Source: Bdellovibrionales bacterium
GTDB taxonomy: Bacteria > Bdellovibrionota > Bdellovibrionia > Bdellovibrionales > DASUEL01
Direction: 5' to 3'
DNA length: 12,124 nt
NCBI GenBank assembly: GCA_050250255.1
Contig: JBFWOZ010000067.1
Location: 1-12,124 of the forward strand
Shown piece by piece: positions 1 through 12,049 of this stretch (the stretch's first letter is position 1; each line of letters begins with the position of its first letter). The position numbers and the translations under genes were made by a program. The notes below the pieces were generated by a model. It was not told the DNA's origin, did not search any database, and worked only from the letters and a program-made list of their open reading frames with translations.

Positions 1-89
1 TTCTGCTTCGAAGTTCAGAAAGGCTGAAATATCTCAGCAGCCGACTGTGACTAACACGGGTTCAAGCATCACCGAAAAGTAGGTTCGAT

Positions 90-347
90 TTATCGGTTGA
101 TAGGTTTCTTAGATGACTCTTGCGCTGCTGGAGTCGTTTCTTTTTTTGCAGCCGTATTGGCCGTTAGAGGTACATCGGCTTTCGCGCAAATAGCACAACT
201 CGTTTTTGTTTGATCCTGAAAGTCAGCGTCAAAGCTTGCCCCGCCAGTGAGAACATTTTCTTGAGAATCACCGAAATTGGATTCGGCCATGGCATAGCTC
301 ACAGAGCCTAAACTTAAAATCGAAATAAAAAAGAGAACTTTCAACAC
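90..347 (-). CDS. Small secreted, probably disordered CxxC protein; positional/putative homologue of Bdellovibrio Hit (Bd0108)
   Basis: GTG start with AAGGAG SD upstream; Sec signal peptide (MLKVLFFISILSLGSVSYAMA); polar low-complexity mature part with C51-A-I-C54; last gene of the tadA-tadB-YD operon, the position I recall for Bd0108. Confidence 0.7.
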   Translation of the reverse strand: MLKVLFFISILSLGSVSYAMAESNFGDSQENVLTGGASFDADFQDQTKTSCAICAKADVPLTANTAAKKETTPAAQESSKKPINR

Positions 348-378
348 ACCAAACTCCTTCTTGGTTCTTGTAGTACAA

Positions 379-2004
379 CTATAATCCTAAATCAACACCA
401 GCAGGCTCAACAACCTCGAGCAGATTGTTAAACGCCCCAGCAACCTGTACCGCAACGGTAGGGCCGGCGGGGCTATCCACCTTATTGATCTCGCCATTGT
501 TTTTATAAGAAACCTGAAGTGTTCCTACTCCTGGCCGCTCAACAGTGGCGGGTTTGCCAAATTTGTTTTCGTATTTGATATTCACTTGGCGTTTTGCCTG
601 ATCCATCAAACTTGTAATGCGTCCAACATGATCGTAACCAAGGTTTACAATTTGACCTTTTTTGTTTTTCGCATAAGTAAGATTGCATTTATAGTCATAC
701 TTATAGTTTGTCGATAGTCGGCCTTGAGATACTTTGCTGACTTTTTTGCAAGCTTCATCATATTCAAACGCGACTGCCAATTTTCCTTCGGTACGCTTTG
801 CGAGGAGGCCCGTACGTTCGTTATATTCGAATTTTGTTGTTCGACCATTTTTAGTGATGGAAAGAGGGCGTCCAAACACGGGATGGTAAGTGATATCCTG
901 AGTTTCGTTATTGTTCTTAATTAATACGCGAGAAAGATAAGTGTCGCCCTTTTGTTCGTTGGTTTTGTACCAAAACTCATAGCGACCTGTAGTAACGACT
1001 TTGTCGTTACATTTTTTTGTCACAGTAGACCAATAATGTTGTTTTGGATCATCTTTTGAAAGTTCGTACTTGTACTCTTCTTTACAATTGTCGCGGTCTT
1101 TGAAGCTCGTGACCCAGTCTTTGTTCGTATCGTAAGTGATTGTTTTTTTTGTTTTGTCTGGAAAGTCGATGCTCACGAGGTTGTGGAGATCATCGTAAGC
1201 GTAGCGGTACACGTTGCCGAAACCATTTTTAACCGTATCAAGATCATTTAAATTTTTAAATGTATACTCAGCACCTACACCATTTGGACCCGTGATTCGT
1301 TTTACTTTTTTGTTCGAGTAAAAGCTAAAATTGAGCTTCTTTCCGTTGTTATCGACCACATCTCGAAGTGTTTCGCCAGCATAAGTGAAGGCGAGCGAAT
1401 TTCCGTTTTTATCCACGAGTTGTACGAGGCGACCTTGAAAATCAAACTTTTGAGTTTCCCCACCTGGAAGTTTGCGGTGGTAGTAAGAATCACGAAGTTC
1501 GATAAAGTCTGGGCCACGTCCATTCGCCATAAAGCGACCGGCTTTTTGTAATTTCGATTGTAAGCCAAGATCTTCCATCATCTTGTCTCGAAGACGACGA
1601 TCGTTCTTGAGCTGGTTTGTTAAGTCGCTCAAGTAAGATCTCGTGAGATGAGAGCTTGTGCTTCTGAGTTTGGTAATTATTTGTTGAATCACAACATTCA
1701 CATCTTTTTTAGAAACGTTAGATGGCATATAGATCACTTCAAGACCGGCACCACACTCGGTAAGCTTGAGATTTCCTTCGGCGCTAATCTCGAGTGAAGT
1801 CTCGAAATCGGAGCACCAACCAAATCCGAACATACCGTTGAAGAGTGAGCGGCTGTTGTAAGTTCGCTGTACGCGAAGGTTATAGCCAGACCCCTGGATC
1901 TCAAGATCTATCCACGTTTCAGCGTAGTTGGCGTTTCTCATATCGACTAATGCGAAAGCAGAAACTGGAAGAAGCGAGATTAAAAGAATGAAGTGTTTCA
2001 TCAT
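379..2004 (-). CDS. Secreted YD-repeat/RHS-like protein with DUF6531-type N-terminal domain (Bd0109-like)
   Basis: AGGAG SD; signal peptide; DLEIQGSGYNLRVQRTYNS...GMFGFGW motif typical of RHS N-termini; many YD-type repeats (FDFQGRLVQLVDKNGN, YAYDDLHNLVSIDFPD, YDHVGRITSLMDQ); no RHS-core DPxG motif or toxin tail. Confidence 0.88.
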   Translation of the reverse strand: MMKHFILLISLLPVSAFALVDMRNANYAETWIDLEIQGSGYNLRVQRTYNSRSLFNGMFGFGWCSDFETSLEISAEGNLKLTECGAGLEVIYMPSNVSKKDVNVVIQQIITKLRSTSSHLTRSYLSDLTNQLKNDRRLRDKMMEDLGLQSKLQKAGRFMANGRGPDFIELRDSYYHRKLPGGETQKFDFQGRLVQLVDKNGNSLAFTYAGETLRDVVDNNGKKLNFSFYSNKKVKRITGPNGVGAEYTFKNLNDLDTVKNGFGNVYRYAYDDLHNLVSIDFPDKTKKTITYDTNKDWVTSFKDRDNCKEEYKYELSKDDPKQHYWSTVTKKCNDKVVTTGRYEFWYKTNEQKGDTYLSRVLIKNNNETQDITYHPVFGRPLSITKNGRTTKFEYNERTGLLAKRTEGKLAVAFEYDEACKKVSKVSQGRLSTNYKYDYKCNLTYAKNKKGQIVNLGYDHVGRITSLMDQAKRQVNIKYENKFGKPATVERPGVGTLQVSYKNNGEINKVDSPAGPTVAVQVAGAFNNLLEVVEPAGVDLGL

Positions 2005-2019
2005 TTCCGTGACTCCTGG

Positions 2020-2895
2020 TTACACTTTGATTTTAACAATATTTCGAATCATCAAGCCACCCGTAATTTGGAGGGCTAGCATTGCGAGCAAGAAGAAAAC
2101 ACCTAAGGTCGTGGTGAAGAGAGGTCTGATGTACGCTGGGTCCATAATGGCGAACATAAACAGAAGAAAAAATGGAACCATGGTGATGATAACTCCTTGC
2201 ATGACCCCTTGAGCAGTTAAAGCTTCGATTTTCTTTTCAATCTTCTGTCTTTCACGAATTGTCTCGACGATAGTCGAGAAAGTTTCGCCGAGATTACCGC
2301 CGGTTTCCCTTAAAATATTCACCGACAGCACAAACATTTGTACTTCTGCTCTGGGAATACGGTTTGCGAGTCCAGTAAGGGCTTCTTCATAGCTTAGCCC
2401 TAATCTCATTTGTGAGATTACTAGACCAAACTCCTGGCTGATCGGATTTCCCATGTTTTCTACAACACGTTCCATAGATTGAGGAACACTAAGTCCACTT
2501 CGTACACCGTTGCCCATAATAGTAAGTCCGTCCACCATTTGATCACCAAATTGTGAACAACGTTTGTTGTACATGTAATCCACTATGTATTTTGGAAGCG
2601 TCCAGCCGAGGGCGGTCATAATACAAAACATCAATGTCGCTGGAAAAAAATTTGGCCAGAGGAGAAGAAAAAATAAAAAGCCAATTCCAAAACTCATAAG
2701 GAGCATGACAATGGTAATGCGCTTTTGATCAATCTCCACGAACATAAGATCAAGCTTTTGAATTACATAATCTCGCTGCCCTAAGCTTTTTCGGTGAAGC
2801 CAACTAAGAATCGTATCAGACCAGTTATAGCTCACGATAAAAATGGAAATACCCAAAAGCGGAATAAGCACCCAATCGTTCGAAAAAATTCCCAT
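2020..2895 (-). CDS. tadB: Tad/Flp pilus inner-membrane platform protein TadB (T2SS F family)
   Basis: N-terminal TM segments; DGLTIMGNGVRSGLSVPQS and ETGGNLGETFSTIVETIRERQKIEKKIEALTAQG motifs; two C-terminal TM segments; ATG overlaps the ATPase TAA (TAATG coupling). Confidence 0.9.
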   Translation of the reverse strand: MGIFSNDWVLIPLLGISIFIVSYNWSDTILSWLHRKSLGQRDYVIQKLDLMFVEIDQKRITIVMLLMSFGIGFLFFLLLWPNFFPATLMFCIMTALGWTLPKYIVDYMYNKRCSQFGDQMVDGLTIMGNGVRSGLSVPQSMERVVENMGNPISQEFGLVISQMRLGLSYEEALTGLANRIPRAEVQMFVLSVNILRETGGNLGETFSTIVETIRERQKIEKKIEALTAQGVMQGVIITMVPFFLLFMFAIMDPAYIRPLFTTTLGVFFLLAMLALQITGGLMIRNIVKIKV

Positions 2896-5081
2896 TAGCT
2901 ACCTCCGCTTGCTTTTTTTACAGGTGGAGTGTTCTGTGGATTTGTTGAAGTCGTATTATTGGTGAAAAGAGTTCTTGGAATCTTCACACCTCGTCGTTCA
3001 AACTCTTCAATGAAAGAAGGGATCAATCCCATAGCCTGGAATTGGCCAATGATTTTTCTATTTTTATCAAAGCCTTCTTCTTTGAATCGGAAAATTTCCT
3101 GTAGGGTCACTGTTTCTCCCTGCATGCCGACAACTTCTGTAATACTAATGATTTTTCGTGTACCATCAGAAAGACGAGAAATTTGGATGATTAAATCTAC
3201 CGCACCAGCAATTTGTTCGCGAATCGCGCGTGCGGGTAAATCCATTCCTGCCATCATACAGAGAGTTTCTAAGCGACCGATGGCTTCGCGAGGACTGTTT
3301 GAGTGAACCGTTGTCATAGACCCATCGTGACCGGTGTTCATGGCAGAAAGCATATCTAAAGCTTCACCACCCCGACACTCTCCTACAATGATTCGATCAG
3401 GACGCATACGAAGTGTGTTGCGAACAAGATCGCGGATTGTGACCGAGCCGGTACCCTCCATGTTCGCAGGTCGCGTTTCAAGCCTCACGACGTGAGTTTG
3501 TTTCAATTGAAGTTCGGCGGCATCTTCTACCGTGATAATTCTTTCGGTCGTAGGGATAAAGCTTGAAAGCACATTGAGAAGTGTGGTTTTACCAGATCCG
3601 GTACCGCCCGAAACAATTACGTTCAGTCCGTTTTCCACACAGATTTTTAGGAAATCGACCATGGATTGAGTCATCGATCCCCATTCGAGGTAATTTTTTG
3701 TCGTGATAGGTTTTTTAGCGAATTTACGAATTGTCACTGCAGGGCCATCAATTGAAAGAGGTTCAATAATGGCGTGCACTCGGCTTCCATCTTTTAAGCG
3801 CGCATCCACATAAGGTGTTTTTTCATCAATGCGGCGGCCAAGAGGAGTCACGATACGTTCGATCACGTTTCTTAATTGTAAATTCGAGGTGAATGTCACA
3901 TCGCTTTTTTGAACTTTGCCTGATTTTTCTACGAAAATGGTATCCCGTCCATTCACCATGATTTCCGTTACGCTTTCATCATTGAGAAGATCTTCGAGAG
4001 GGCCGAGGGCCAAAGCCTCGTCTAAGATTTCTTTCACAACTTGGACGCGTTCGTTACGAGGCATATTTGCCTGTTCACGATCTACGAGTTGAGAGATCAC
4101 CTGCTGTGTCTTTTGTTTAAGCGCTAATTCTTTTGCTGGATCACCATTTGTATCCGTGAGCCCTTTTTTGAGATCAAGTGCTTTAATGAGTTCTGAGTGA
4201 ATACGCATTTTGAGAAGCGTTCGCGGATCCAGTGGCTTCACGGCCGGTTTCATGGGACTTGCATCATCGCTTGTCGTTTCAGATTTTTTGATTTGCAAAG
4301 TGGTGGGACGTTGCACGTTTTGTAGACGCTGCAAAATTCCACCAGATGCAATATTTCGAGCGAGATCGTGGTAACTGGCACTCATAGGAGTTTTACTTTG
4401 GCTCACGACAAAAGGACTTGAGCGTTGTAAAGCAGCGGTCGCAGTCACATCATCTTGAGGAATAACCGCGATGACTTGTTTGCGTAAAGTTTGCGAAACC
4501 ATTTGTGGGGATAGCCCATTCGGGCTTGTCTTATTAAGAACTATTTGAATCATATCGCTGGGTAATGTGGCGCGAGCTAATTCATTCAGTAATCGGTAAG
4601 TTTGATTGACGGCGAGAATCTCTGGAGTCGTCAGAACTAAGCACAAAGTAGAAACGGTGAGTGTGCTCATCTGTACGGGGCCTAATTCGGAACCAAGATC
4701 GATAATAATGTAATTGAAGAATCGAGTAAGGTTTTCAAGAGTTCTCACGAGAGTATCAGGTTCGCATCCTAATTGTTCGTCGGGAGATCGCACGGCCGCT
4801 AAATAATAAATTCCGTTAGGATGTTTTGTGAGAAGAGTTGGAATTGTTTGTGCCGTCAATGCCCCCGTATATTGAGTGAGCTCGCGTACGGTTTTTGTAG
4901 GTTTTAAGCCGGTGATGATATTTTGATCTCCACAGCTTTTACTATCGAGATCTATTAAGAGAACAGAGCCGCGTGTTTCAATAGGGAGAGTGAGTGCGAA
5001 GTTCGCCGCAAAGACACTTTTCCCCACGCCGCCTTTTCCACCAATGACTGAAATGATGTGACCTGTATTTTGCGAAGACAC
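2895..5081 (-). CDS. tadA: Fusion of TadZ/CpaE (MinD/ParA-like) domain and TadA/CpaF pilus assembly ATPase
   Basis: GTG start with GAGGGAG SD; N-terminal deviant Walker [10 protein letters not shown] and LLIDLD; C-terminal Walker [10 protein letters not shown], Asp box ITVEDAAEL, Walker [15 protein letters not shown], His box [15 protein letters not shown]. Confidence 0.92.
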
Positions 5082-5106
5082 TTTTAAGATCTCCCTCGTT
5101 GTTAAC

Positions 5107-5134
5107 TTGTCGGAATTTATAAGCTTTTTTATTA
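5107..5134 (-). promoter_or_regulatory. Weak sigma28 (FliA)-like promoter candidate for the tad/hit-like operon
   Basis: Minus strand TAAT-N16-TCCGACAA versus consensus TAAA-N15-GCCGATAA, 25 nt upstream of the GTG start; spacing and -35 are imperfect. Confidence 0.35.
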
Positions 5135-5192
5135 CTCATGAGAGCAAGATCAGGACTAACGATGAGTGCGAGAAACGGGACATATGTCGCAT

Positions 5193-5219
5193 TAAGAGGA
5201 TCTCGGAATGAGCCGAATA
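5193..5219 (+). promoter_or_regulatory. Sigma28 (FliA)-type promoter
   Basis: TAAG(5193-5196)-N15-GCCGAATA(5212-5219), canonical spacing, about 75 nt upstream of ATG 5294. Confidence 0.7.
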
Positions 5220-5228
5220 TTTATTCAA

Positions 5229-5289
5229 GCCAGGACGGCCCATTTTTACAAAGACCAGGATGGTAACTACTGAACCAGGGAAAGGGTTC
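5229..5289 (+). promoter_or_regulatory. Three GGA-in-loop hairpins in the 5' UTR; putative CsrA/RsmA binding sites
   Basis: GCC-AGGAC-GGC (5229-5239), ACC-AGGAT-GGT (5254-5264), GAACC-AGGGAAAG-GGTTC (5272-5289, over the SD region). Confidence 0.6.
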
Positions 5290-5293
5290 TTTT

Positions 5294-6073
5294 ATGTTTG
5301 CCAGATGGTTTGGCTATTCTATTCTTGTTGTCGCCTTTGTTGGGCTTCTCAGTTTTTTCTGTGAAATTGCTTACTCTCGAGAAGTCGCGATATTTTCCGT
5401 CAATAAAACATTGCAGATGGATCCTGATGAACCTGTTTACCACGATTACTATATAAGTGGTGGATCAGAACAAGGATTTAGAACGGGTATGCAAGTCACG
5501 GTGATTCGTAGAGTTCCCGTACATGATCTCTCCCGTAATCGAGCGCTAGGTGATCTTCGGTTACCAATTGCAAAATTAAAATTAATCTTTGTTCAAAAAG
5601 GGATGGCTGTAGGTCGTCTGGCAACTCTGACCTCCGCAAAAAATTCGCCGATCGTGGATTATAATGGGGTCATGATTGGCGATGCAATCTCTCTTGGTAA
5701 CGGACTGGATGCTAACGGCATTATGGAAGTAAACGAAGAGGGTGAAGGAAATTCGGGTAAAAGTGAATCAGGTGATTCGACTCTTAAATCAGAAGGTACT
5801 TCAGATGAAAAAGCAGAGTCTAAATCTGAAGTACCTGCCGCAGTAGAGTCGACGTCTGCCGCACCGGAGGGAGCTCCAGAGCCAGCTCCTCTTACGCCTG
5901 AGGAAATCACTAAGAACCTTATGCCGAAAGAGACGAAGACAGATGTTTCCTCGCGAGTACCAGCCGCGGCAGAGCCTAAGCCTGCGAAACCAAAAGAAAA
6001 ACAACAGCCAAGCGCGGTTCCTCATAAAGCCGACCCTGCTGTCGAAAACACCCTCCTAGCTCCAAAAGCTTAG
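5294..6073 (+). CDS. Exported hypothetical protein: small beta domain (FlgT C-terminal-like by eye) plus long E/S/P/A/K-rich disordered tail
   Basis: 259-aa ORF; hydrophobic N-terminus; YISGGSEQGFRTGMQVTVIR...IAKLKLIFV...VMIGDAI pattern; C-terminal half is low complexity. Confidence 0.75.
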   Translation: MFARWFGYSILVVAFVGLLSFFCEIAYSREVAIFSVNKTLQMDPDEPVYHDYYISGGSEQGFRTGMQVTVIRRVPVHDLSRNRALGDLRLPIAKLKLIFVQKGMAVGRLATLTSAKNSPIVDYNGVMIGDAISLGNGLDANGIMEVNEEGEGNSGKSESGDSTLKSEGTSDEKAESKSEVPAAVESTSAAPEGAPEPAPLTPEEITKNLMPKETKTDVSSRVPAAAEPKPAKPKEKQQPSAVPHKADPAVENTLLAPKA

Positions 6074-10142: not shown

Positions 10143-10874
10143 TTAGAAGCGGACGCCGAGTTTTCCGTTGTAGACAGCTTGCGTGTATTGGTCGATTTGA
10201 AGGGCGATGAAGTAAGGTTCGATGTCGATGGTTCCGCCGACAAAAGTGTGTAGCTGATTGATGGTGTTGGATTCATCGATGCGACTTGAGGTGATCTCTC
10301 GAGAGAATTGTGCCGTTGAACCAACGGGCCCACCACCGACATACATGGCAAAGCTACTGACATTTAAGCCAGCCACGAACTCAATACCCATTGATTGGCT
10401 TAAAAATACGTTACCGACATTGGCACTATTTGCGTGAATAAGAACAGAAAACGATGCGGGAATAAAGGCGGCTTGATGAAAACAATAGCGAAGGATGCCT
10501 CCATACTCTGAAAAACCTGTATTCTGTGTGTAAGGGATAAAATGGAGAAACATATCGAGATTGTTGTAAAGCCCCTTACCCACACTGATCTTGCCGTAAT
10601 TAAAATCTTTTTCGCGTCGTGTGGTAGCGCCTAAGCGGCCGATATCTTCTGTATTGATGTGTTCGACAGAAACGCCGATCTCAACGCCGGAATAACCTCC
10701 GAGCGGGTAAGGATCAGAAATGAGTCGGCTGCTTGTGCCAAGCCCGAGAACTTCTGTTACGCGTGTACGATCTTCAAAGCTTAAATTTGTGGGAAGAGAA
10801 ATCGCCGCAAAACTTGTTATCGAAAACAAAACGATCGTTACGCTAAAAGTGAATATTAAGAACCGATTCCTCAT
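10143..10874 (-). CDS. Probable outer-membrane beta-barrel protein, unknown function
   Basis: Signal peptide (...ITSFA); Gly/aromatic-rich amphipathic strands; C-terminal KLGVRF with terminal Phe (BAM-type signal). Confidence 0.75.
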   Translation of the reverse strand: MRNRFLIFTFSVTIVLFSITSFAAISLPTNLSFEDRTRVTEVLGLGTSSRLISDPYPLGGYSGVEIGVSVEHINTEDIGRLGATTRREKDFNYGKISVGKGLYNNLDMFLHFIPYTQNTGFSEYGGILRYCFHQAAFIPASFSVLIHANSANVGNVFLSQSMGIEFVAGLNVSSFAMYVGGGPVGSTAQFSREITSSRIDESNTINQLHTFVGGTIDIEPYFIALQIDQYTQAVYNGKLGVRF

Positions 10875-10880
10875 TTAGAA

Positions 10881-10909
10881 ATGGTAGAGAATAAGCGGAA
10901 TTCAATCAA
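10881..10909 (-). promoter_or_regulatory. Sigma70-type promoter placing +1 at the ATG (leaderless mRNA)
   Basis: TTGATT-N17-TACCAT-N6-ATG; no SD present. Confidence 0.6.
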
Positions 10910-10918
10910 GTAGCAAAG

Positions 10919-10942
10919 AGGCTAGAGATGAGTGTCTAGCCT
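10919..10942 (-). terminator. Intrinsic terminator of the 368-aa gene
   Basis: AGGCTAGA-N8-TCTAGCCT directly after the TAA, followed by CTTT on the minus strand. Confidence 0.6.
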
Positions 10943-12049
10943 TTAAGGAAGTGCGGCGGTCATAGCCGTGGTGTAGCGCTGAATGGAATCTAAAGCGACT
11001 TGTGAAGATTGTCGGACCTCAGGGCTAGCGTCATTTTGAATAAGGTCTTGAAGAATTGGAATGATGGTTCCTTTAAAGTAGGGGCCATGAGCTAAAGGAG
11101 CATCGGCGATGCGACGTTGACGGCCCGTCTTTGCATCTCGTAAGTGAATCTGAGCCGCTTTTGTAATAAGAAGAGATGATTCCATGCGAACTTCTACAAT
11201 TTCTGAATGAAGTCCCTGAGAAAGAATCGCGACACGGTTAAAATCTGTCGCGTAGCTGTCTAAGCTTTTCGCTATCTCTGCCCGTGTCTCTTCATTTTCA
11301 ACATCAGCTTTTGCTCCTACCAACATACTGTAACTTGCAAGCGATGGAGTGGCATTCAAAGCCTTCACGCCCTCGGTTTGTACTTGAGGATCTGAGCTCA
11401 AAAGCATTTCTTTTGTTAGAACGTAGAACCAATCCGGTGAACCGAGAGATCCTTTTTTATAAGACTCAACAAGCTTTTGTGTTTCAGCAGGATTTGCAGA
11501 GTAGACGATCAGAGTACGCCATTGTTCAAGTGTGATGAAAGACGGCTCTTCTTCAGCGATTTGTTTTTCCACATCTTTTTTAACAGGAATCGCAACGGCG
11601 ACAACGTTATCTACATATTCGTCTTGAGTTTTCCAACCATCACCTGTGTAGCGACGTGCTTTTTCTACCTGCGAAGGAGCTTTCACGATGACATTCTTAC
11701 GTTTTTGTTTCTTTTTTTGCGCGAGTTTCTTTTTCTTTTCTTCTTTTTGCTTTTTTGCGACGAGAGCGGCAATTTTCTTTAACGTCTCTTGGGTCTCTTT
11801 ACTTTCTACGACGGTCTTAATTTCTTCTGTTGTTTTAAAAGATCCCCATACTGGAACTGCGGGAGCTTTTTTTGCGAGTGCAGGAACTTTGAAAGTGGAA
11901 GCCTTCATGTCGAAACTAATCTCTTCGTTATCTTTGGAAGTGTCTCGAATTGGTTCAATGTCGACATTGCTTGCACGTAGGCTCATCCAAACCACAAACA
12001 GAAAGCTTGTAGCTACGGCTCCGATGAGTTTTGGGTTTTTCGCATCCAT
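10943..12049 (-). CDS. Membrane-anchored hypothetical protein with Lys-rich linker and C-terminal HEAT/ARM-like helical region
   Basis: AGGAG SD; N-terminal TM helix; KKQKEEKKKKLAQKKKQKRK tract; SSDPQVQTEGVKAL, IVEVRMESSLLI and DASPEVRQSSQVAL resemble HEAT repeats. Confidence 0.8.
   Translation of the reverse strand: MDAKNPKLIGAVATSFLFVVWMSLRASNVDIEPIRDTSKDNEEISFDMKASTFKVPALAKKAPAVPVWGSFKTTEEIKTVVESKETQETLKKIAALVAKKQKEEKKKKLAQKKKQKRKNVIVKAPSQVEKARRYTGDGWKTQDEYVDNVVAVAIPVKKDVEKQIAEEEPSFITLEQWRTLIVYSANPAETQKLVESYKKGSLGSPDWFYVLTKEMLLSSDPQVQTEGVKALNATPSLASYSMLVGAKADVENEETRAEIAKSLDSYATDFNRVAILSQGLHSEIVEVRMESSLLITKAAQIHLRDAKTGRQRRIADAPLAHGPYFKGTIIPILQDLIQNDASPEVRQSSQVALDSIQRYTTAMTAALP

Follow-up and report, generated by a model that had tools for sequence, protein, structure and literature searches.

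The closest described relative of the DNA studied here is tad locus 1, or the hit locus, of Bdellovibrio bacteriovorus HD100 (bd0108–bd0119; PMC3818213, PMC5430801, bioRxiv 10.64898/2026.07.08.737194). Synteny was reported in all eight genomes examined (PMC5430801). In HD100, the locus ATPase has been described as a TadZA fusion, with tadC encoded apart (bioRxiv 10.64898/2026.07.08.737194). The binding of Bd0108 (Hit) to Bd0109 has been published (PMC3818213, PMC4267844); the resemblance of Bd0109 to about half of an Rhs cage, lacking a toxin tip, has been noted, and encapsulation of Bd0108 by Bd0109 has already been proposed (PMC4267844). Two small neighbours were reported in the marine strain SJ (PMC4267844), and arrays of two or three short secreted open reading frames (ORFs) were described beside Bd0109 homologues in 20 of 21 Bdellovibrionales bins (PMC10469934). 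The sigma factor FliA (sigma28), whose consensus is TTAAG-N16-CCGATA (PMC3627812), drives flp1 (PMC5430801), and the tadC operon carries a FliA site (PMC3627812 Table S2). Here we analyze a 12,124-nucleotide (nt) stretch from a Bdellovibrionales bacterium (GCA_050250255.1, JBFWOZ010000067.1; hereafter the window), which encodes a Tad ATPase, TadB, a secreted YD-repeat protein and a small secreted peptide. We consider it probable that they represent the rear part of the Tad pilus/hit locus of Bdellovibrionales, lying apart from an intact flp-to-rcpA front, likely by way of an internal FliA promoter before tadZA.

The window is the entire contig C67 of a 3.09-Mb metagenome bin (95 contigs, 99.2% complete, 1.8% contaminated). 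Its four minus-strand ORFs were confirmed where the initial annotation had placed them (Table 1), the first two overlapping by 1 nt and the others following after gaps of 15 and 31 nt. That description had missed that the 728-amino-acid (aa) ATPase is a fusion of a ParA/MinD-like TadZ with TadA (Pfam CbiA/AAA_31 and T2SSE; NCBIfam MinD/CpaE and TadA). As reference we used a named B. bacteriovorus locus (L092), whose 101-aa ORF clusters with HD100 Bd0108 and whose 550-aa ORF clusters with Bd0109. TadZA and its reference counterpart, corresponding to bd0111, were reciprocal best hits (61–62% identity), and so were the YD protein and its counterpart (49%), corresponding to Bd0109; 266 of 552 positions were identical between the window YD protein and HD100 Bd0109 itself (P0028). 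For TadB, searched in one direction, the window protein was the best match in this genome to the reference (55% over 291 aa). Judged by these matches, tadZA, tadB and the YD gene are orthologues of bd0111, bd0110 and bd0109, as had been claimed; a YD protein was matched in all 41 genomes of the order searched.

The locus shares with that of HD100 the order tadZA-tadB-YD-peptide, the TadZA fusion, 48% identity to Bd0109, a separate tadC and a downstream pair of genes for a conserved hypothetical and a CheY-like protein. It differs in being split from flp-rcpA, in having tadV in the front half, in a first peptide that cannot be aligned to Bd0108, and in an inverted second peptide followed by a 376-aa ORF.

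The remaining Tad genes were found elsewhere in the bin. A single cluster (C10:4623-9325) comprises flp1, flp2, tadV, three pilin-like genes, cpaB and rcpA, and 18 nt past its rcpA end comes a convergent unrelated ORF. A second T2SSF gene, on C55 behind FHA-like genes, is our tadC candidate, called from that family and its context. Both fliA and rpoN are present. The window genes are not contiguous with flp, rcpC and rcpA, which lie on C10. Upstream of tadZA, the window holds a divergent 259-aa ORF (start 5294), a 182-aa ORF, prmA, rsmE, an RDD gene and an rfaE-type gene, and Pfam and NCBIfam scans of eight ORFs there gave no pilus family, in agreement with the initial annotation. Both flanks of the break lie inside contigs, with 7 kb of other genes before tadZA and 71 kb after rcpA, and each gene is single-copy. 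The split, which the initial annotation had also recognized, is real and not a contig break; nothing is reduced, and the locus does not stand alone as that annotation had supposed.

To see how often this joint breaks, we surveyed 40 genomes of the order. One genome of the same family (G001, 77% complete), in which tadA was not found, was dropped, leaving 39 with both rcpA and tadA. With a gap below 350 nt counted as contiguous, 29 were contiguous and ten broken: four carried insertions (0.5, 0.8, 4.1 and 7.9 kb) and six were rearranged or far apart, including two single-contig genomes with the halves 0.9 and 1.7 Mb from each other. The dropped genome had 690 nt of other sequence after rcpA and no tadA match. 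The joint was contiguous in 4/4 further genomes of the order and in all 36 genomes fetched, out of 75, from other orders, chosen for family spread and long contigs. The split is therefore neither the common arrangement nor unique to this genome. In a second set, the best 80 of 264 YD loci, which is weighted to Bdellovibrio's family and partly overlaps the 40 relatives, 14 loci were set aside for lack of a full tadA or of enough upstream DNA; the 66 scorable ones comprised 64 contiguous, one inverted and one with an insertion. Across the fetched loci, with five duplicates removed, seven of 81 rcpA|tadA joints were disrupted, and the nine other joints scored were each interrupted at most once in 24–100 loci. 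On a 51-locus FastTree phylogeny of TadA, TadB and the YD protein, some of whose deep nodes are weak, the 13 disrupted loci require at least eight changes, and this genome forms a deep branch within Bdellovibrionales, consistent with the divergent lineage originally suggested. The locus is truly orthologous to the rear half of the hit/Tad locus already known, in an undescribed arrangement that recurs in a minority of relatives.

We then examined the joint for promoters, using a FliA matrix built from 50 flp1 sites and a threshold at the 95th background percentile. Sites preceded tadA in 45 of the 73 contiguous loci and 10 of the 12 disrupted ones, most of them 45–55 nt upstream. Elsewhere (2/98 before the YD gene, 5/95 before tadB, 6/80 before rcpA, 10/79 before cpaB), and before both peptide genes, they were at or near background. 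Of 74 contiguous loci, 54 had a strict −10 hexamer within 40 nt of tadA, as did 8 of the 12 disrupted ones, compared with 3–4 of 80–97 at four other joints, and the −35 score peaked at the canonical 16-nt spacer (−1.7 versus −6.5 to −12.7). In other orders, the tadA site fell to background (2/33) while the flp1 site was still found in 9 of 12. In this genome, the site scores 5.5, a value reached by 9% of random 225-nt windows and 1.1% of random 26-position slots, and it occupies the same place as in the relatives. There is thus a conserved, predicted FliA-type site, its boxes at 16-nt spacing, before tadZA within this order only, weak in this genome. Its presence in most unbroken clusters likely explains why the rcpA|tadZA joint is fragile.

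Several observations weigh against this explanation. The site in this genome is weak, its −35 box having three of five matches; two of the 12 disrupted loci have no site above background, and the strict hexamer occurs in one of the four further genomes of the order. The genomes are related, so the promoter counts overstate significance, and the matrix was built on flp1 promoters taken from these very loci. No bd0111 start appears in the HD100 start-site table, where bd0119–bd0110 are placed under the flp1 promoter (PMC3627812 Table S2), and a 2026 preprint drives tadZA from Pflp1 as the native promoter, yet targets a 'tadZA-tadB operon' (bioRxiv 10.64898/2026.07.08.737194). Among the passages that our literature search covered, which do not include the predicted promoters marked in Figure 1D of that preprint, we found no report of a promoter before tadZA.

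With an internal FliA promoter, the rear half could be transcribed alone. Both halves and tadC would then be co-expressed in attack phase by FliA acting in trans and would supply one ordinary Tad machine, with TadZA as motor, TadB and TadC as platform, RcpA as secretin and the Flp proteins as pilins. The locus itself is known; what is added is the predicted internal promoter, together with a new reading of the hit-locus small RNA given below, both of which can be tested in HD100. If the promoter exists, it is unmapped and affects how knock-downs and Pflp1-driven fusions are read, and the split in this genome is a natural experiment that shows where the locus can be cut.

An alternative is that the rearrangement was neutral: rcpA|tadZA would break simply as a non-coding gap, and each split lineage would gain a promoter afterwards. 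The gap spans ~10–220 nt and is often wider than the tadB and YD joints, and the missing HD100 start and the weak site here suit this account as well. We nevertheless judge it unlikely, for unbroken clusters already have the site at a fixed distance and spacer, and other orders with similar gaps have neither the site nor the breaks.

The initial annotation had suggested that the four genes may form the conserved functional core and link the YD/peptide pair to the TadAB motor. Spelled out, this view has the pair in physical contact with the motor and selection keeping the four genes together, whereas the genes for pilins and secretin can move away. The genes do hold together: within the order, tadZA|tadB was broken in none of 95 loci and tadB|YD in none of 100, 32 of the 36 other-order genomes have the YD gene inside the region fetched, and pairs within bd0108–bd0111 are co-transcribed in HD100 (PMC3818213). 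The front half, however, is just as unbroken (0 or 1 of 24–84 per joint), so cohesion marks a transcription unit rather than a core, and gaps of −1 to ~30 nt with a promoter in front explain the cohesion of tadZA-tadB-YD without a physical link. The module also leaves out tadC, the obligatory partner of TadB. Next to tadB, the YD gene is missing, displaced or inverted in 7 of 36 other-order regions: all four from family f21 lack it, and in three more it is displaced or inverted. In HD100, reads per kilobase per million (columns taken as attack versus growth phase) fall 68-fold for bd0111 and about 6-fold for bd0109 and bd0108, and the four genes are therefore not regulated as one block. Of that proposal, the constant association within the order survives as weak support, and coupling by a physical link, which the data do not need, seems quite improbable. 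An assembly or binning artefact, with the two halves being neighbours on the actual chromosome or belonging to separate organisms, is highly improbable: the bin has 95 contigs and its C67/C58 overlap has seven differences, a sign of strain mixture, but the position of both sides of the break within contigs, the single-copy genes, the bin's quality, the sequence lacking tadA after rcpA in the same-family genome and the two split single-contig relatives all speak against an artefact. Separation of the halves with the help of a FliA promoter thus stays our preferred account.

The 541-aa YD protein has a leader (judged from its sequence), a DUF6531 domain and YD repeats. Its structure model (predicted local distance difference test score 84) gave template-modelling scores of 0.55–0.58 over ~530 columns to the cages of RhsA (7q97) and Advenella Rhs (8qja), with which it shares the YD-repeat sheet fold. 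It is about half as long as Rhs cores, scores 45 bits on RHS_core against a cut-off of 2000, and ends in a conserved helix. Neither the family scan nor the structure model revealed a C-terminal Rhs protease or toxin tip in its 541 residues. We therefore ruled out an Rhs toxin with an immunity gene; the small neighbouring protein, moreover, is predicted to be exported. The YD protein is predicted to be the N-terminal half of an Rhs cage without the toxin tip. As an open half-cage in the periplasm, it may bind the presumably disordered CxxC peptide in the way published for Bd0109 and Bd0108, and the pair could tune the state of the pilus and the switch between predatory and free growth.

The initial annotation had placed the 85-aa peptide in an orthologous hit locus. 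The peptide shares with Bd0108, the disordered CxxC partner of Bd0109 (PMC4267844), its position, hydrophobic leader, CxxC motif, lack of Trp and polar tail, and is of the same size class (85 versus 101 aa); its disorder is suggested by composition. Pairwise BLAST against Bd0108, however, gave no similarity. Among 12,784 short ORFs, the peptide ranked first on both slot profiles, yet with E=4 and 0.27. When 20 of the 66 first-slot peptides were each left out of the profile, 17 ranked first, the weakest at E=0.51, and the window peptide scored below every one of these. This lack of significant pairwise or profile similarity counts against the reading of the window as the rear of the hit locus. 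The peptide fits as a positional counterpart of Bd0108; homology is unproven, and the case consists of position, signal peptide and CxxC.

Small exported ORFs were called by a hydropathy rule in the 80 loci, less three without the YD end and then seven (first slot) or ten (second slot) with too little downstream DNA. One lies directly 3' of the YD gene in 65 of 70 loci, and first-slot peptides carry at least two cysteines in 64 of 66 cases and CxxC in 42. Many Bdellovibrionales are stated to lack bd0108 (PMC11870529); with this slot filled so regularly, such statements probably reflect search sensitivity. The second slot is filled in 56 of 67 relatives, with exactly one cysteine in 54 of 57 peptides. 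Profiles of the mature parts cross-react above shuffled controls (23/57 versus 2.0; 10/66 versus 1.15), so the two peptide classes are likely paralogues. The arrays of PMC10469934 agree in slot and size with those seen here; the accessible text describes no two-cysteine and one-cysteine classes, promoters or rcpA|tadA split in them. Similar arrays of small secreted ORFs occur in other orders too.

The window also cuts a fifth gene, so that it is not the four-gene module first described. It ends 89 nt past the 85-aa peptide gene. Positions 1–254, reversed, match the start of contig C58 (247/254 identical); a 12,205-nt contig of run X1, which may be the source sample, extends 103 nt further into C58, and the junction is also spanned in run X2. 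The overlap contains the end of a gene for a 70-aa secreted one-cysteine peptide, which converges on the 85-aa peptide gene and is inverted relative to its place in relatives. Beyond it on C58 come the 376-aa ORF, then a palindromic repeat, and then the pair of conserved hypothetical and CheY-like genes that is also found 3' of the locus in relatives. On the profiles, the inverted peptide ranked 11th for the first slot and fell outside the 58 matches for the second, which likewise speaks against our assignment.

We searched upstream of the peptide genes with the general sigma54 consensus. The pattern precedes 53 of 57 second peptides and not one of the 66 first-slot peptides, with 2.1% for random windows. 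A predicted sigma54-type site lies on C58, 64 nt ahead of the inverted gene. A FliA-like score of 9.3 there overlaps this site; we prefer the sigma54 reading, because 53 of 57 relatives share it. The second peptide would then be a separately controlled, sigma54-driven paralogue, and this separate control may be why it could become inverted.

In the reference, the second-slot ORF, which is 66 aa long in HD100, corresponds to HD100 positions 96683–96483, inside the published 'small non-coding RNA' of the hit locus (96455–96716; PMC3818213), and both primers used there for reverse-transcription PCR match within it (0 and 3 mismatches). HD100 Bd0103 (96125–96385), by position, is the convergent hypothetical gene and not the second peptide. 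The ORF behaves like a protein gene: differences at the codon positions number 54/32/125, and a ribosome site is present in 52 of 57. The NCBI hypothetical protein WP_038450492.1, an automated annotation, falls in its cluster. We found no paper, among sources accessible in part, that links the 'sRNA' to a secreted peptide gene, although automated annotation already lists the hypothetical protein. Most likely, then, the RNA that rises in bd0108 mutants is a messenger encoding a secreted paralogue of Bd0108.

Taken further, and only tentatively, the Tad/hit locus of Bdellovibrionales might consist of three separately driven units rather than one operon: a FliA unit for pilins and secretin, another FliA unit beginning at tadZA, whose origin in this order rendered the locus breakable, and a sigma54 unit for the Hit paralogue published as a non-coding RNA. 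The lifestyle switch might then be set by the Rhs half-cage as it reads a peptide from the tadZA-side transcript against a competing one controlled by an enhancer-binding protein.

Table 1 Features of the window (ORF and site coordinates in nt).
Feature	Position	Strand	Basis
tadZA	2895..5081	-	TadZ domain ~aa 8-246 + TadA/CpaF ATPase ~aa 324-655; Pfam, NCBIfam, reciprocal best hit
tadB, inner-membrane platform protein	2020..2895	-	Pfam T2SSF 3e-19; bd0110 orthologue
Secreted DUF6531 + YD/RHS-repeat protein	379..2004	-	Pfam/NCBIfam; Bd0109 orthologue
85-aa secreted peptide, CxxC (C51, C54)	90..347	-	Ribosome-binding site + hydrophobic leader; Bd0108 (Hit) slot
Second secreted one-cysteine peptide, 3' end (70 aa; whole gene G000:C58:385-173)	1..82	+	Contig overlap, translation, bridging contig
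Candidate FliA (sigma28) promoter of tadZA	5105..5136	-	-10 box CCGACA at 5113-5108; predicted
Candidate FliA promoter of divergent 259-aa gene	5190..5221	+	Score 9.6 vs 95th-percentile background 6.7; predicted; outside pilus locus

An Rfam scan found no family in the window and only tRNAs in loci L087 and L092, and scans of window positions 1–5400 for sigma70 promoters and terminators were at chance level (6 versus 9.1 and 7 versus 5.4, respectively). The 259-aa ORF (5294-6073, +), whose FliA-type site stands back to back with that of tadZA, has a hydrophobic leader and an acidic low-complexity tail, matches nothing in Pfam or NCBIfam and has no counterpart near the locus in the 20 relatives examined. 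Two further minus-strand ORFs at 10143-12049, both without a curated family, encode a 243-aa protein that has a leader and ends in Phe, by eye resembling outer-membrane proteins, and a 368-aa protein that is membrane-anchored and HEAT-repeat-like. On C58, the 376-aa ORF between the peptides and the conserved hypothetical/CheY pair (L194:738-1868, +) has a leader and no Pfam match. The palindrome beyond it, of ~88 nt and like a repetitive extragenic palindrome (L194:1864-1951; also C10:12488-12567), has about 20 copies in the genome, several of them at contig ends.

In the front cluster, the tadV prepilin peptidase gene (L195:5058-5606), reported missing from Bdellovibrio strains (PMC5430801), is also present in many relatives of the order. 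Just before the flp1 promoter lies a 165-aa secreted-looking Asn/Gly-rich ORF without a Pfam match (L195:4002-4499, +). In other orders, several genomes (L161-L164, L187) have a tandem duplicated cpaB, and in these we detected no small secreted ORF behind the YD gene. Among loci L165-L167 and L174-L177, the family f18 ATPases match only from query residue 108–135, with a shortened TadZ part, and in family f21 tadB is not followed by a YD gene. Directly divergent from the flp cluster on C10, a bacterial microcompartment cluster of two EutN/CcmL genes, three BMC genes and one aldehyde dehydrogenase gene (L195:169-3928, -) runs on to the contig start.

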